From an uncultured Planctomycetaceae bacterium (GTDB lineage Bacteria > Planctomycetota > Planctomycetia > Planctomycetales > Planctomycetaceae): a stretch of DNA of 64,000 nt. Position numbers: made by a program. Below are positions 27,001 to 33,000 of the stretch, in pieces. The stretch lies in the NCBI GenBank assembly GCA_963815195.1, contig CAWFGE010000014.1, positions 64,001 to 128,000 of the forward strand, written 5' to 3'. Every line of letters starts with the position of its first letter. Position 1 is the stretch's first letter.

Positions 27001-30000
27001 CCGACCTACCCGGCGAGACCCGCTTCCGCTTGAGCACGCACGGCGTCGAAGGCGTCTACAGCAACGGCAGTTACACGGTAAAGTTTTATGTGGAGTCCAC
27101 CGCCACCACTCCCAGCGAACAAACAGCCGTCATCGCCGCGTTAAACCAATGGCTGGCGGAGAGACACTGAGTGTCGACGAGGAAACGCCAAGGCCACGGC
27201 GTTTGATAGTAAGACCTTCGGCTAATCCGGCCATTCTCTCATGAGGCGGCCCAGGCCGAAGACGGTGGATTTGCCCAGGTGCAGCCACTCGGCGGCGGCG
27301 AAGAGGGGGGCCAACGGACCGGGGCCTTGGGGGAGCGGCAGATCGCCGGTGATCGTGGGCAGTTCCAATCGCCGCTTTTGACTGCCGGAGTAGCGGGCAA
27401 ACGACTGGGGTTGTCCTCGGAACGCTCCGGCGGGATGGCGGCGCGCGATTTCTAGCCACGCGGCTTGATCGGCTTTCAAACGGCTGGCGGCTTCCGGAGG
27501 CAGAAAGGCTTCCGCTCGGCGGAGGGTGGCCATCGTTAAATCGACGAAGTTCGGTTCACGGACAAACTGCCGTTGGTAGAACATCCGCAGGCCCCATACA
27601 CGCAGATTGCATGGCCGACGCGGATCAAGATCACCCAAAGGCCACAACCCGAACCCCGGATGTAACCGCCCTGGCGAGAGCGTCGTGCCCTCCCATGCCA
27701 ACGGGCGAACTTCATCCAGAAAGAACGGTGTGCGATCACGACCCAATCCTTGGCAGCCGGTGTGCTCCCAGGCCCGCCACAGCCGATCCTGCTCCTTCGG
27801 AGAGACCTCGCCCATCAAGAGAAACTGCCATCGCGTAATAGGCTCGGACCGCGAGACGACCCCAGCATTAGCGGGCCGCACAATGTACCGCGGCCTCCGG
27901 TCGGGGCCATCTCCGAAGATCGTTTGATAATCCGCAGGAGAGATGCCCGCAGCCGGCTGCCCCACACGCCCCGGAGCTGCACGACCGTCGCCCGATGCCC
28001 CCGCGTGTCCAACCGCATCTCCCACGCCCGCACCCGCACCTGGGCCAACTCGGCCATGAGACGTTTTGTGAGAATCTCGACCGCGGGGACTCGTGCCGCC
28101 CCGTTCGTCTCCGCCGCTTGCCCCCGCCGTCCGTTCGCCAACTCTAATGCCATGATTGCTCCGTTTGTCAGAACCTCCCCAGAATATACGCCTTTCCTTT
28201 CCAAAAAGGGACACCCGGCACAGGAAATTTTAATGAAGACCTGCGGCCGAAAATCGATTCGCTGAGTCTTTCGTCTCCGACATTGGTTTTTTTGTTCCGA
28301 GGGGGCGATCCGCTGCGTATTTCTCTCAGTGGCGGAAGAGCACGACCTTGCGAACTGAGAGCGAACCGAATTTCCGAATCCGAAAAAGGGAGGACAATAA
28401 CATGGACTTGGCTGTGATGATTTGGTGGCTAGGCGGAGAACTTTGGGTGTCGGCCCGCACCCCGGAAAGGAAATTCTTGCCTGGCGGTGGTATTACTGGT
28501 AGGATCGGCCGCAATGAGAATCCGGTGACGCAACACCAGCGATTGCGAGGAGCGACCCGATGGCGGGCCACAAGGCAGACCAAGAGCCAAACCATGGAGC
28601 AGATCACGAGCGGGAGCAGATCCGTCAATGGATCGAGGCGATCCTCGACGGCTCAGGCTCGGAGCACGACGACGCCATGCACCGCCTCTCGGAAGTGATT
28701 AGCCACGTTCGCGGCGCTTGCGGGTGCTCGGTCGCGGCAACCAAATCCTGCGAGATCTCATCGAGGAAGCGCCGTCGGTCATCTTCCAGAAGCTCCGTCA
28801 GTTCGACACCGAGCAGGAGTTCGAGCCGTGGTGTTGGATTGTATTGAAGAACGCCTTTCTGGATCGCTGCCGGAGAAAAAAGACCGACCCGCTCGCCGCG
28901 AGCGGATCGACAAATGCCGAGGACTCGGACCCCATCCAGCGCCTCTCCGACGATGAGGCGGCCGACTTTCGGCGACGACTGGAATCCAGCCTCGACCATA
29001 ACGAACCGTTCTCCGCAACCGATCAGAACGAGATCCTTACCTGGCGTCTCGACGACCGCATCGTATTGCTAACTCTGGGGCTTTTGTGGCAGAAGGTTCC
29101 TCCGGAACTGTGGTCGGACTGGCTCAGCGAGCGGAATGTCCCAGCACTTTTCCGCCTAAGGGTTGGGAGACTGAAACCCTTAAGCAACATTGCGAGATTT
29201 TGGGGGACGCGCTCGGTCAGAACTCTGAGGCGATCAAGCGGCGGTGGTATCGTTATCGGCAATTGCTGTCGAACTTGGAGTACGTGCGGGGGATCCAGCC
29301 ATGACCCAATCCTCTCAACCACAAGGGACGATCTGGCAGGGACTTCGCGACCCGCGTTCCGACTGTGGGAAGGCCGGTGCGGTCACGATGCCGCGATCTA
29401 GTTGGCAGCACACAGCCGAGCGGCATATTTGCCGATCGGTCGAGCCATGGGACGAAGTATTTCCCGCAGAGATTGTGACGGCCCTGCAACGATTCGGACG
29501 AAACCAGGAAACACTGAGTTGCGAGCAGTGGGAGATCGCTTCGAACCTGCTCGGTGAGCAGGTTCGGCAGTCCCTGGATCGGCCTTTGGTGATTCTGTAT
29601 CTGCAACGCCAGTTCTACCAGGACGAACCCTATGCCGAGCGTTGGCTGCTTCTGTTACCTTGCGGCGGGCTGATGGCGATCCGTAGCGTCCAGCATGGCG
29701 GCAGCGTCCTGACGTGCTTTTTCATGGAGCAGTCTGGTCGCGGCCATCAGCTTGACAACCGCTGGAAGTATGCGTTGTTCTTCCTAAGAAACAAATACTC
29801 CGAACAGGATCCTAAGACAGGGCGACGGCATCCGCCCCACCCTGCCTATGCCGTTCCGATCCCTCGCCGGTTGGCCGACGAGGACCGCGCCGAGATTTGT
29901 TTTGTCACGGAACACGAGTGGCACCTGCCGGGTCCGGCTCGGCTCGAAACGAATATGCTGCGCCCGTGGCCGACCCACGAGAAGGACACGACCCGTTCGG

Positions 30001-33000
30001 GCGCCGGCCGTGGATGAAGCCTAAAGACACCGAGTGAGAACCTCAGCGATGACTGACCGAAGATCGAATCTGCCAGACGATGAAGCCGCATTCCGGCGCG
30101 ATGAAGTGGAGCAAGCCTACGCGCTCCCGGGGCTAGACGTCTTCGATCACGGGGGGCCAGTCGATGACGCCGTGCGCAAGAGCGGCGCTTCAATTGGCCC
30201 AAGCGATCGGGTACTGCCGGCTGTTCGGAGTCGAGATTGGCGAACTCGATGGCGTGCTCCCGGCGGACGTGGCCATCGCAGCGTGCCGGGAACTCGCCGA
30301 TCGGGTAGCCGCCTGGACAGAGCAACTCCAGGAACTGCCAGAACGGTATTTCGGAGCAATCGACGGATTCGAGGCCGAAGCGGCCTCCGACGACGTGTTG
30401 ATCGCCTGCATGGACTCGTGGGCGACCACCGCGGCGATCGAGGAAGCCTACACGCGCTGTGGGCCGGAGGACGACGTCGATACATTCTCCGCCGAATTGG
30501 ACCGGCTTGGGGACGCCCTGGACGAGTTTGACCGAAAGGCCCGCGAGCACGCCGACTTGTTGTCCACGCTCGCGAAGACCAACCTCTTGTCGAACTGGCG
30601 GTCGTATCTCGTCGAGCCGTGGAGTGAATTGCTGCCCTGGTGGCTGGATGGAACGCTTGAACGAACGGCTGAGGCCGTCGACCAGCTGGTGGCGGCCACC
30701 GTACCCGGTGAGTCCGACCGCCGTGCGGAGAAGGCCCGAGACCGATCCCAGATCACCGGCCCGAGCCCGCCTTGCGCCCGCGATGGCCGCTGCCGGTCCT
30801 TTGGAAGCCGGCAAAACCTATTCCTGGGATTCTCCAGATGGACGGTACCAGGCATTGCTCACGCTGACCACGACTTGGCAGGAGACGGTTCGGCTCGGGT
30901 TTGTGCACCGCGAGAGCGGAGCACCGACCGCCGAACTCAAGGGCCGCAAGGCCCGACTCGGCGATTTGCCGCCGGTGCCCATCGACGACAAGGGCCTCGC
31001 AGAGTTCGCCACCGCGTCGGTTCTTGGGCAGCCGTCGCGACTGCATCTCGATGAGGACGATCGAAACTGGACGCCCGTTGGACCGGAAGACAGTCTGTAA
31101 TCCGCTGGTGGAAAGCTGGCTCCATCGGATCCGGCAAGTTCTGACCTTAGCTTGTTTGGATGCGCCATGGCCGTCACTTGGCTGAACCGATCATCTGCGG
31201 ACTTGACCCCGGCTGCCGCCTGCCAGCTTGTCGAGTGGCTCGGTCCCTTCGCGACTTGGTGTCTTCAGGCGGACACTTTAAACAAAGCCGCGGCCTCCTA
31301 CCGCCATCGCGGTGTGGCGGTCCTGGCCGAAGCGCTTGAGAAGCCGTGTGGACTGCCCCAGGAGCCGGGAACGTGCGGCGTTCTGTTCGTCCGCAAACGA
31401 AACGACTACCCCGGCCTGCGGGATGCCTTCGCCTGGCCGCTCCGATGGGTCGCCGAGGCGGAGCATGAACGAGTTCTCCCGGTAAAGTTACTGGCCGAGG
31501 CCGAGCGGGTTCGCGAGACGCTGATCCAGCAACTGGGTGATCTGTTGCCGACAGAGCGCTGGGGACTGCGGCCGGGGCTTGGCGGACCAGCCGACTGGCC
31601 TGACCTCCGGCACATGGACGTTTCCTGTGACTCGGCCTGGGTCCCGCTGGCGGGCGGTCTCCTCGCCGCGTCTCTGGAGGGACAGGTCGACCGCACAGTC
31701 TGGGCCACAGGAGCCTGGCAGGGCGGCATCGCAGCGGTCGGCTTTCTGCCGGACAAGCTCCGGGAAGCCGTCCGCCTGGCCGTACAGCGCGTGTTTGTGC
31801 CGACACAAAATCTCGACGAAGCCCATCAACTGGTCGAATCACACAACCTCGACCTGTCGATCGGGGAGTTGCGGCACGACAAACCTCAAGCGGCCGAAGC
31901 GCTCGGGCAATTCCTGGAGGAGTTTTCTGTCCTGCCGCCCCGCATCCCCGACGATGCGGAGAATTTCGAGCGACGTTGCCGCGCGTATCTCCGTCATCCA
32001 CGCGCGGAGAGAGCCCGCGACTATTATCTTTCGGACCTGCTGCCGGACCTCGCCGACCAAAAGATTCGCGGTCCTCTTGCGACAGTCTGGCCGGATTGGC
32101 ATCCCGATCTGCTGGTGGCTGTGGTCAGCGGCGGGTGGGAGCTGATCCCGCTTCTCTCCGAGGCTCTCCGGCCGCAGCGATGTCTGCTGGTCTACACCGA
32201 GGGGGAGAAAGAAATGCTGAAGGCCACCGACCGGGTGGAAGCAGAGCTCAAATTGCAAGACATCCCGGTCGACCGCATCTCGTTCGACGACGCCGACACG
32301 CTGGTCGCCGAGTTGCCGGAAGCATTGCCGGTCACGCTCGAATCGTCCGATCCCGAGGGCGTGTTGCTGGATCTCACGCTCGGAACGAAACTGATGACTC
32401 TGGCCGTCGACCATGCCGTCCAGCCAGGCCATCGCCTGATCTACATTCAGAGCCGGCCAGGGGCGGGCCGGCGAAGCGATCCCGCTTCCCTCTGCCCGTG
32501 GACGACGCAAGTCCGCCCGGATGGCACCCGCCCCCCCCTGACGCTGGCACGGCCCTCGTGACAAATCGTCGCGGATGACGGTCGAACGCCATCGTAGAAC
32601 CGGTTTGCATTGCTTCCTGCAGGCGACGACCCTCTGGCGCCCCACTTTTCACGAAAATCCCGGCTTGGCTTTCCGTTCGTGTCCCTTTCTGCGGCTGGGG
32701 TGCGTATTCCCGGAGGACGCGGTGATCGAGCATGTCTATTCCACCAAAACGCCCGTCAGACGAGGCATTCCTTCCACCAGCAGCCCCGCCGTCTTGACAG
32801 AGGAGACGTTCTTCATGCACTGGATTATCGCCTACGACATCCATGCCGACCGTCGCCGCGCCCGCGTCGCCCGCCGACTGGAACGCGCCGGACTTCGGGT
32901 ACAGCAGTCGGTGTTCCTGGTCGAAGAATCCAGTCCGCAAATCCACGACCTGTTGCACGAGCTGTCTCGCCTGATCGCGAAGTCAACGGACCGGGTAGCG

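Follow-up and report, generated by a model that had tools for sequence, protein, structure and literature searches.

A Lon-CARF protease with an ECF-like sigma factor and a predicted anti-sigma partner in a planctomycete type III-D CRISPR locus

Craspase and the SAVED-CHAT cascades work through a caspase-like CHAT protease, which either the effector complex or SAVED switches on and whose substrate is unrelated to the partner protein described below. These systems (Csx29-Csx30-sigma of type III-E in the case of Craspase) reportedly have a CRISPR-triggered protease that cuts an anti-sigma-like protein, as we propose for the present module. The likeness of the module to CalpL-CalpT-CalpS comprises an ATPase-less Lon domain with a Ser-Lys dyad, followed at the C-terminus by a sensor for cyclic nucleotides; a neighboring partner of two domains, of which the C-domain is small and rich in beta strands and whose flexible linker holds an Ala cut site (predicted here); an adjacent ECF-like sigma factor; and type III-A, -B, and -D contexts. 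CalpT is cut after Ala, exposing an LAA degron, and its C-terminal fragment stays on CalpL after the cut. The CalpL system is further characterized by cleavage that depends on cA4, release of sigma, filaments, and ring nuclease activity. In the RseA-sigmaE pathway, cleavage of RseA uncovers an Ala-Ala C-degron, a target of ClpXP, and the ECF sigma factor is set free (10.1101/2024.05.08.593097); that pathway is membrane bound and answers envelope stress, whereas all parts are soluble here and the trigger would be a nucleotide messenger. The CARF-Lon fusion itself was predicted before, a prediction credited to Makarova et al. 2020 in a 2022 review (PMC9704534), whose passage on it gives no known substrate and speculates about promiscuous or host-directed proteolysis, whereas the locus described here offers a candidate partner.

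The window analyzed here is a 64,000-nt stretch of DNA from an uncultured Planctomycetaceae bacterium, and its relevant features are as follows.

17021 to 18652, plus strand: Cas10, short type III-D form (PADLOC Cas10, E = 2.6e-68)
18628 to 26016, plus strand: type III-D effector block with four csm3/cas7-like genes, csx10, csm2, csx19, and one 230-aa ORF
21415 to 22107, plus strand: the 230-aa ORF inside the effector block, without assigned family
26037 to 27170, plus strand: second CARF effector, CARF7-DUF2103, Cami1-like (PADLOC, E = 2.4e-122)
27222 to 28214, minus strand: cas6 (PADLOC Cas6, E = 2.3e-27), frame broken near 27960 by tblastn comparison
28560 to 29304, plus strand: ECF-like sigma factor, subtype A, with frame breaks near 28710 and 29143
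29301 to 30038, plus strand: ORF2, putative RNase with a RelE/BrnT/colicin-D-like (BECR) fold; stop at 30017 in the assembly, end near 30038 according to the reads
30049 to 31100, plus strand: partner, predicted anti-sigma and protease substrate, with a helical N-domain, a linker, and a beta-sandwich C-domain
30786 to 30794, plus strand: Ala-Ala-Ala after Met in the partner linker, predicted cut site and C-degron
31167 to 32561, plus strand: Lon-CARF protease without ATPase domain, frame intact (PADLOC CARF_m2--CARF_LON, E = 3.8e-87)
31632 and 31755, plus strand: S156 and K197, catalytic dyad of Lon-CARF
32815 to 35427, plus strand: cas2, cas1, and reverse transcriptase (RT)
35716 to 39361, no strand assigned: CRISPR array in which a 37-nt repeat occurs 50 times

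The initial annotation had placed a four-gene module between cas6 and cas2/cas1/RT of a type III-D locus, and both statements hold. The gene order past cas6 (sigma, ORF2, partner, Lon-CARF, cas2, cas1, RT, array) was re-derived; sigma, partner, and often an ORF2-slot gene recur at other Lon-CARF loci. Cas10, with GGDD at 17903 and no HD dipeptide, is accompanied by Csx10, Csx19, several Cas7/Csm3 proteins, and the array. This Cas10 is presumably the source of cyclic oligoadenylate (cOA) at the locus. We propose, with a probability of roughly 0.7, that the module is a cOA-triggered transcription switch of the CalpL-CalpT-CalpS kind, a reading supported by the dyad and CARF motifs, a controlled Ala-Ala signal, domain-wise co-variation, and a weak docking fold. 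The module is probably a variant of a known circuit, from CRISPR alarm molecule to gene expression, made from different and apparently swappable parts.

The protease call stands. Residues 10 to 446 align to positions 9 to 400 of 408 in the PADLOC CARF_m2 model (PDLC01981), a full-length match that places the protein in the CARF-Lon family; the dyad region aligns with archaeal Lon (E = 1.1e-11), no AAA+ domain is present, and the invariance of Ser156 and Lys197 now extends to 39 of 39 aligned sequences. The C-terminal part matches the CARF domain of Csm6 (E = 3.2e-11) as well as those of Can1, Can2, and Cam1 and carries the motif D402-x-T-x-G406-x-K408. CalpL has SAVED, whereas here we find a single Csm6-like CARF, for which a dimer is expected, and no SAVED match in Pfam, PADLOC, or PDB. 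In the closed genome G530 a single frame joins Lon-CARF to Cas10, and another single frame joins it to Csx16, a cA4 ring nuclease (10.1101/2024.09.24.614671). The product of the neighboring CARF7 gene matches PDB entries 8phb and 8phj (E = 1.2e-14); since Cami1 is cA4 activated (PMC11229360), this neighbor points to cA4 as the messenger of the type III-D locus. The initial annotation makes no mention of the CARF7 gene.

The partner is a two-domain protein, as first described, but it begins at the ATG at 30049, in the read-supported frame, and not at 30164. An orthologue model (pLDDT 93) shows an all-helical N-domain and a beta-sandwich C-domain, and the family comprises 978 clusters at E ≤ 0.001 and 718 at E ≤ 1e-10. 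The reported conservation of Ala-Ala in the linker was confirmed: of 145 homologues anchored on the C-domain Trp, 130 carry it 7 to 22 residues ahead of that Trp, versus 664 of 2,097 N-domain windows (32%), 43 of 145 for the window just upstream, and a shuffle maximum of 105. The profile used to rank the homologues itself includes the motif. It is directly preceded by L, M, V, or I in 108 homologues and is absent from the linker in 15 of 145. By analogy with CalpT, it is the predicted protease cut site. The N-domain of CalpT is MazF-like, whereas that of the partner had no MazF or CalpT match by sequence; fold comparison with VIA returned generic helical bundles alone (Z up to 8.1), with the C-domain barely covered. 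CalpT was not among the fold matches listed, and the partner may still resemble it. The C-domain of CalpT is DUF2080/immunoglobulin-like. That of the partner is a beta-sandwich in the model, and its profile gave nothing below E = 1.3 against PDB. Foldseek with the partner model yielded no match at E ≤ 0.001, and ESM Atlas no usable match.

Each partner domain varies with a different neighbor. Across 23 loci, the N-domain co-varied with sigma (0.58; partial 0.57, P = 0.0005), the C-domain with Lon (0.40; partial 0.26, P = 0.009), and the two domains with each other at 0.12, values obtained with a 90-residue C-domain and for which physical linkage could account in part. All 26 genomes whose partner match reaches the C-domain have Lon-CARF, and the six with N-domain-only matches have no Lon-CARF match. 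From this co-occurrence and co-variation, the N-domain is predicted to be the anti-sigma part. Docking of the C-domain on the protease is weakly supported by a modeled complex (G008 Lon-CARF with partner residues 240 to 362) that scored 0.52, against 0.00 for the best of three controls; of 157 solved pairs, 116 reach the mark for this score, as do 2 of 215 mismatched ones, but just 18 of the 157 solved pairs, and both of those mismatched ones, reach it at 0.60 or under. Runs agreed in at least 45% of contacts, with a partner pLDDT of at least 71. The pLDDT of 92 for the Lon-CARF model and the score of 0.85 for a sigma-partner complex are figures carried over from the initial annotation.

The sigma factor is ECF-like by family matches to solved ECF sigmas (best E = 1.1e-9, region 2). 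Sigma70_r2 was matched by 8 of 12 orthologues at E ≤ 0.01, just 4 of them above cut-off. The G008 orthologue passes the TIGR02937 cut-off. The local gene reaches E = 1e-4 and 22.5 bits against Sigma70_r2 (cut-off, 24) and is matched by the family profile in two frames; its start at 28560 is based solely on a GAGGAG lying upstream and on a profile match short of significance. No region-4 family was matched among the 12 orthologues in any library searched. A search for a promoter motif ahead of 27 sigma genes gave no 6-mer that rose above shuffled controls.

ORF2 is present too, ending near 30038 and not at 30017, and its RelE/BrnT-like fold call stays weak. Most top VIA rows for its model (pLDDT 80) were RelE/BrnT/CdiA/colicin D toxin RNases, with Z at most 4.5; H37, H42, and T138 are conserved in 26, 31, and 27 of 34 sequences. 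Pfam, NCBIfam, and PADLOC gave no match, nor did Foldseek at E ≤ 0.001, and the best Atlas match (0.84 at low recognition) is a lead. On the model, ORF2 is a putative BECR-fold RNase. The partner might then be chiefly its antitoxin, cleavage freeing an RNase that arrests the cell, with the sigma-like gene regulating the operon or forming a second cargo. The fold with its conserved His, His, and Thr fits this, as does the position of ORF2 between sigma and partner. ORF2 also follows the same two subtypes as sigma and the N-domain, so the N-domain could bind it, and it stays with the N-domain in two helicase fusions (L079 and L080). However, 7 of 38 loci have sigma and partner but no ORF2-slot gene, the fold match is weak, and the partner-slot protein of G600, encoded two genes past an ECF sigma, has an N-terminus with HxxxCxxC, to which an LRAAA linker and a C-domain of weak similarity (E = 0.04) are joined. 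HxxxCxxC, the zinc anti-sigma motif, points to an anti-sigma role for the slot, and we consider release of a toxin an unlikely main function.

Upstream DNA of at least 3.5 kb was available at 38 other Lon-CARF loci; the partner was found in 33 of these, sigma in 33, both in 31, and an ORF2-slot gene in 25; E-values of these matches are inflated because the profiles contain most of these sequences. The partner lies directly upstream in 32 of 38, in line with the earlier claim for most loci, and co-location of the four genes is not chance. A different view, raised as speculation in PMC9704534, would make Lon-CARF a promiscuous or host-targeting killer protease, with the upstream genes as co-traveling regulators rather than substrates. 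Five of the 38 loci have no partner nearby (L038, L047, L053, L058, and L068, the last with a weak match alone), as that view would allow, but for three orphan proteases the same genome encodes partner genes at other places (G250, G371, and G007). The frequent position of the partner directly upstream, its positioned Ala-Ala motif, and the co-variation and co-occurrence of its C-domain with the protease also make a killer protease quite improbable.

The CRISPR link of the module is tighter than the initial annotation supposed. Its statement that mostly no CRISPR is nearby holds for adjacency, since 29 of 43 Lon-CARF loci have no cas genes in the fetched stretch, but cas genes flank 14 of 43 rather than 2 of 16. 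Genome-wide, 28 of the 30 genomes with Lon-CARF have a Cas10 palm (PF22335), against 46 of the 371 without, at E ≤ 1e-6, a threshold chosen because PF22335 also matches in E. coli at E ≤ 0.001, where the control is silent at 1e-6; the set of 30 among 401 genomes omits the weak Lon-only matches G368 and G025 (E about 7e-4). Within families the count was 27 of 29, against 9.3 expected. CRISPR independence of the module was rejected on this contrast. The CARF could nevertheless sense a nucleotide signal unrelated to Cas10, in a general stress switch only at times beside CRISPR, as the unlinked loci and two genomes without Cas10 at this threshold (G250 and G326) might suggest. Given the genome-wide Cas10 contrast, the fusions to Cas10 and Csx16, and the fragmented state of both genomes (93 to 94% complete, with a partial palm match at E = 3.9e-5 in G250), this strikes us as very unlikely.

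The local copy has frame breaks at about 27960 (cas6), 28710 and 29143 (sigma), 29998 (ORF2), and 30184 and 30705 to 30748 (partner). Likely assembly error had been proposed for sigma and partner; breaks also occur in cas6 and ORF2. Near-identical 151-nt records from a public run span two of the six breaks (one record per break, depth about 3); each of these records differs there from the assembly by one base and lacks the break. Sequencing runs cover small shares of the window, and the other four breaks lie outside read cover, so the local copy may be damaged. Six breaks within 2.8 kb, versus a single broken frame among 33 housekeeping orthologues from the rest of the genome, might mean that the family works as described while local sigma, ORF2, partner, and cas6 are decaying pseudogenes. 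The two contradicted breaks speak against decay, as do six other records in 28391 to 31359 that match the assembly without difference and the lack of in-frame stops in profile-matching pieces; the sole housekeeping break, in mnmG, also suggests assembly error, and we hold decay to be doubtful.

Under the proposed switch, target RNA would activate Cas10 to make cOA, probably cA4 judging from GGDD, the neighbors, and the fusions. Binding of cOA to the CARF of Lon-CARF, probably a dimer, would turn on the Ser-Lys site, and the partner, pre-docked through its C-terminal beta-sandwich, would be cut at the hydrophobic-Ala-Ala linker as CalpT is. The N-terminal helical fragment holding sigma would then end in Ala-Ala and may be destroyed by ClpXP (ClpX is present), and the freed sigma would redirect RNA polymerase. 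ORF2, the weakest step, might be an optional BECR-fold RNase belonging to the front half, which either the partner holds or sigma induces. The CARF-Lon fusion, listed without known target, would gain a likely substrate, cut site, and output, and activation of a Lon domain by a CARF dimer becomes testable, where CalpL needs SAVED filaments. The parts suggest a second origin for the CalpL logic of protease, anti-sigma, degron, and sigma, this time built on a dimeric CARF and an unrelated anti-sigma.

The front half (sigma, ORF2, and N-domain) and back half (C-domain and protease) are apparently exchangeable, with the joint inside the partner gene. For the protease (quick trees, 32 rows), monophyly of subtype A was rejected (p-AU = 0.0035). 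The front half also occurs beside Lon-STAND proteins or fused to defense helicases; the helicase fusions L079 and L080 have an Ala run at the junction and no adjacent protease. This reuse with other sensors, the extra BECR-fold gene, and frequent separation from cas genes set the module apart from CalpL-CalpT-CalpS. It is possible, though we offer it tentatively, that Planctomycetes carry a plug-in immune transcription cassette (sigma, BECR-fold RNase, and helical anti-sigma domain) whose sensor is set by what follows the anti-sigma domain: an Ala-Ala linker and docking domain for Lon-CARF (once fused to Cas10), an Ala-Ala linker and another beta-domain for Lon-STAND, or a DISARM-like DEAH or SNF2 helicase fused to it directly. 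A single cut would free both sigma and RNase. CRISPR would then be just one input of a general defense-to-transcription relay. That the front half is reused by STAND and helicase systems hints at transcriptional outputs in defense beyond CRISPR. The joint may serve as a natural adaptor, made of the docking domain and the Ala-Ala degron; attached to other cargo, it could act as a protein switch under cOA control.

Neither PADLOC nor Pfam has a dedicated family for partner, sigma, or ORF2, and we found no description of them beside CARF-Lon in the literature searched, which takes in few of the subscription journals. The module was seen in Planctomycetota, the phylum effectively covered by our searches; a scan of named genomes with a single protein query gave no relative, a word-indexed search with ORF2 returned three proteins, and one for relatives beyond the phylum returned four.

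The type III-D CRISPR system in this stretch holds a four-gene module, consisting of an ECF-like sigma factor, a RelE/BrnT-like gene (ORF2), a two-domain partner (predicted anti-sigma) and a Lon-CARF protease, which our comparisons show to be real. Its domains, catalytic dyad, linker motif, synteny, co-occurrence and co-variation were observed directly, and from them we infer ligand, activation, cut, degradation and sigma binding. Cyclic oligoadenylate (cOA), made by Cas10, would activate Lon-CARF, which would then cut the pre-docked partner at an Ala-Ala linker; degradation of the N-terminal fragment by ClpXP would free the sigma factor. 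We give this cOA-triggered release a probability of about 0.7. The surrounding genes are as follows.

17021-18652, cas10, with GGDD at 17903 and no HD dipeptide
after cas10, effector genes csm3, csx10, csm2, csx19 and further csm3 genes
26037-27170, CARF7-DUF2103 gene, Cami1-like (PDB 8phb, E = 1.2e-14)
between the Cami1-like gene and the module, minus strand, cas6
downstream of the module, cas2, cas1, reverse transcriptase and a CRISPR array of 50 repeats

The Cami1-like gene adds a second cOA effector to the locus, and a copy 55% identical to it adjoins the module in another compared locus (L035). The reverse transcriptase (34117-35427) stands alone 3' of cas1, so spacers derived from RNA are possible.

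The last gene of the module matched the PADLOC model CARF_m2--CARF_LON over nearly its full length (E = 3.8e-87). In profile comparisons its Ser and Lys aligned with the dyad residues of archaeal Lon (E = 1.1e-11), and its C-terminal third aligned with the Csm6 CARF domain (E = 3.2e-11), followed by Can1, Can2 and Cam1. The Lon-CARF identity and the conserved Ser156/Lys197 dyad proposed in the initial annotation are thus borne out, with S156, K197 and G406 invariant across 39 aligned family members. The protease is without an AAA+ domain and gave no SAVED match. The module appears to work in the same way as CalpL-CalpT-CalpS, the known Lon-SAVED protease, anti-sigma and ECF-like sigma set of type III CRISPR, but is not a member of it, as it lacks both SAVED and the MazF-like domain. 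Its protease falls instead in the predicted CARF-Lon family, and the accessible part of a review names no substrate for that family (PMC9704534). In the literature searched, we found no account of CARF-Lon partner genes, though the supplements of Makarova 2020 and of bioRxiv papers may list the neighborhood.

Six frame breaks lie between about 27960 and 30750 (one in cas6, two in sigma, one in ORF2 and two in the partner), while Lon-CARF, cas10, the Cami1-like gene, cas1 and the reverse transcriptase have intact frames. Elsewhere in the genome, a frame change was found in 1 of 33 housekeeping orthologues; this change, in the mnmG orthologue (contig C13), points to indels left over from assembly. 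For two of the six breaks, a public run supplies 151-nt records that are otherwise near-identical, each of which differs from the assembly by one base there (one record per break, depth about 3). Assembly error, already suspected, is supported by these short reads for two breaks, with the other four uncovered by reads, and is the likelier cause overall; decay of the local copy, a matter separate from the mechanism, is improbable. With the read differences applied, the partner starts at 30049, rather than at 30164 (contig 94164) as annotated initially, and ORF2 ends at about 30038. At 19400-19520, csx10 apparently lacks a proper start, and a small indel near 19500, additional to the other breaks, is likely. 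At 20095-20214 the same gene contains an insertion made of short helical repeats in tandem; two copies of 51 nt are 88% alike, and further copies can be recognized in the protein sequence.

A single query located Lon-CARF at 42 places, spread over 30 of the 401 class genomes; two weak Lon-only matches were excluded and 39 other loci retrieved. Partner profile matches occurred in 32 of 401 genomes, and 20 of 22 new places were retrieved; this search brought four additional Lon-CARF loci, so the Lon-CARF counts are lower bounds. Among the 38 of 43 loci with at least 3.5 kb of upstream sequence, the partner was present in 33 (directly upstream of Lon-CARF in 32) and sigma in 33. Sigma and partner together accompanied Lon-CARF in 31 of 38, in agreement with the reported presence of the module in other Planctomycetia. 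A gene in the ORF2 slot was found in 25 of 38 loci; 13 of these genes belong to the ORF2 type and 12 to a distant one (63% probability and E = 7e-5 in a profile-profile comparison). Homologue source names (Gemmataceae, Tuwongella and Rhodopirellula) fit Planctomycetia; outside the class, 401 sampled genomes of the wider phylum yielded matches in 4 more. Two loci (L044 and L062) have a permuted order, with Lon-CARF ahead of sigma and partner, and several genomes carry 2 to 5 paralogous modules. Three genomes (G250, G371 and G007) contain orphan Lon-CARF genes plus orphan sigma-partner cassettes, consistent with split modules (loci L038, L047 and L058, with L094/L096, L088 and L091-L093).

The module appears to consist of two exchangeable halves that meet inside the partner. 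Pairwise distances were compared by rank correlation across the 23 loci that carry the three genes. The partner N-domain gave 0.58 versus sigma and 0.17 versus Lon; the C-domain gave 0.40 versus Lon and 0.39 versus CARF, and the two domains of the same chain only 0.12. If only linkage were at work, the N- and C-domain, being encoded by one gene, should co-vary most strongly; a joint inside the gene thus argues that they bind different partners. There are two subtypes of sigma, ORF2 and N-domain (the local module is subtype A), and they require 5 to 6 changes on the protease tree. Subtype A as a single clade was rejected (p-AU = 0.0035; 32 rows with typed partner, groups from N-domain clustering in an analysis that also yielded a first protease tree). 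Partner matches reaching the C-domain occurred in 26 genomes, all with Lon-CARF, and N-domain-only matches in 6, none with a Lon-CARF match and 5 without Cas10. The N-domain also occurs in other settings, as follows.

L079:5903-10514 and L080:6456-11133, sigma, ORF2, then N-domain fused to a DEAH-MZB helicase
L081:5194-10487, sigma, then N-domain fused to a DrmD-like SNF2 helicase
L082:2444-10013 (minus) and L083:5821-10415 (plus), sigma, ORF2-type gene, partner, Lon-STAND-like protein

The helicase fusions adjoin sacsin/UvrD genes and have no adjacent protease. In L082 and L083, the partner has the N-domain, an Ala-Ala linker and a different C-terminal beta-domain, the last gene joins a Lon Ser/Lys segment to a STAND-like NTPase, and the genomes have no Cas10 at threshold. 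Conversely, the partner in genome G600 (L077) replaces the helical domain with an HxxxCxxC N-terminus, which we take to be a zinc anti-sigma motif and which had no library match; it keeps an Ala-Ala-Ala linker and a weakly similar C-domain, and an ECF sigma lies two genes upstream.

The sigma family aligned with solved ECF sigmas over region 2 (best E = 1.1e-9). Sigma70_r2 was matched by 8 of 12 orthologues, with 4 above the cut-off; one passed TIGR02937 and none of the 12 matched any region-4 family. The ORF2 model (pLDDT 80) resembles, in most of its top structural rows, BrnT, RelE/ParE, CdiA and colicin D RNases (Z of at most 4.5), and H37 (26/34), H42 (31/34) and T138 (27/34) are conserved. 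Toxin release as the main output is nevertheless unlikely: ORF2 would be an optional, putative RNase, and sigma and partner occur without an ORF2-slot gene in 7 of 38 loci.

The partner family comprises 978 clusters at E ≤ 0.001. In a model of the G008 orthologue (pLDDT 93), residues 14-222 form a helical domain and 265-360 a beta-sandwich, with a helix and a linker of lower certainty between them. When 145 of the best 150 homologues were anchored on the Trp of the C-domain, using a profile without the linker, Ala-Ala lay 7 to 22 residues upstream of the Trp in 130, compared with 664 of 2097 control windows, 43 in the next upstream window and at most 105 in within-window shuffles; the linker motif noted initially thus holds. 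The residue before it is L, M, V or I in 108. The motif resembles that of CalpT, which is cut after Ala (10.1101/2021.12.06.471393) and exposes an LAA degron (10.1101/2024.05.08.593097). ClpX is encoded in the genome. That Lon-CARF is instead a promiscuous protease is quite improbable. A G008 complex of Lon-CARF 8-470 and partner 240-362 scored 0.52 (best of 3 controls 0.00). Among reference pairs, 116 of 157 solved and 2 of 215 mismatched ones reached the mark, only 18 of the 157 and both mismatches doing so at ≤0.60. Runs agreed in at least 45% of contacts, with partner pLDDT at least 71, and the fold lends weak support to the predicted docking through the C-domain.

Cas genes (subtypes III-A, -B and -D) occurred in the retrieved stretch, about 8 kb per side where the contig permits, at 14 of 43 loci. 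The earlier statement that the module mostly has no CRISPR nearby thus stands for adjacency but not for genomes, since a Cas10 palm (E ≤ 1e-6) was found in 28 of 30 Lon-CARF genomes versus 46 of 371 others, and within families in 27 of 29 versus 9.3 expected, counts that include kin genomes and are not independent. Both Lon-CARF genomes without Cas10 at threshold are fragmented. Copies unlinked from cas genes are best read as effectors in trans, and a CARF ligand from outside CRISPR is very improbable. In the single-contig genome G530, a 1127-residue frame (L078:6331-9711, minus) spans Lon-CARF (112-556) then Cas10 (575-1025), either a true fusion or two genes in one shared frame; its upstream genes (370, 404 and 317 aa) gave no match to module profiles. 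In G600 (L077:5461-10160, plus), Lon-CARF is fused to Csx16, with cas10 divergent. Csx16 is a cA4 ring nuclease according to 10.1101/2024.09.24.614671, and Cami1, Csx1 and Can2/Card1 are described as cA4-activated in PMC11229360. Because of the Csx16 fusion and the Cami1-like, Csx1, Card1 and Csx3-like neighbors of Lon-CARF, cA4 is the likeliest candidate ligand.

A 230-aa ORF (21415-22107) after csm2 in the effector operon, with no Pfam or PADLOC match, is perhaps a second small subunit. Stretches of 300 nt repeated in pairs (15482-16414, 41766-43361, 43902-44201 and 63422-63721; 74 to 87% alike) are probably mobile-element copies on the flanks of the locus, and 2241-3935 holds seven repeats with a period of about 276 nt within a large surface-type protein.
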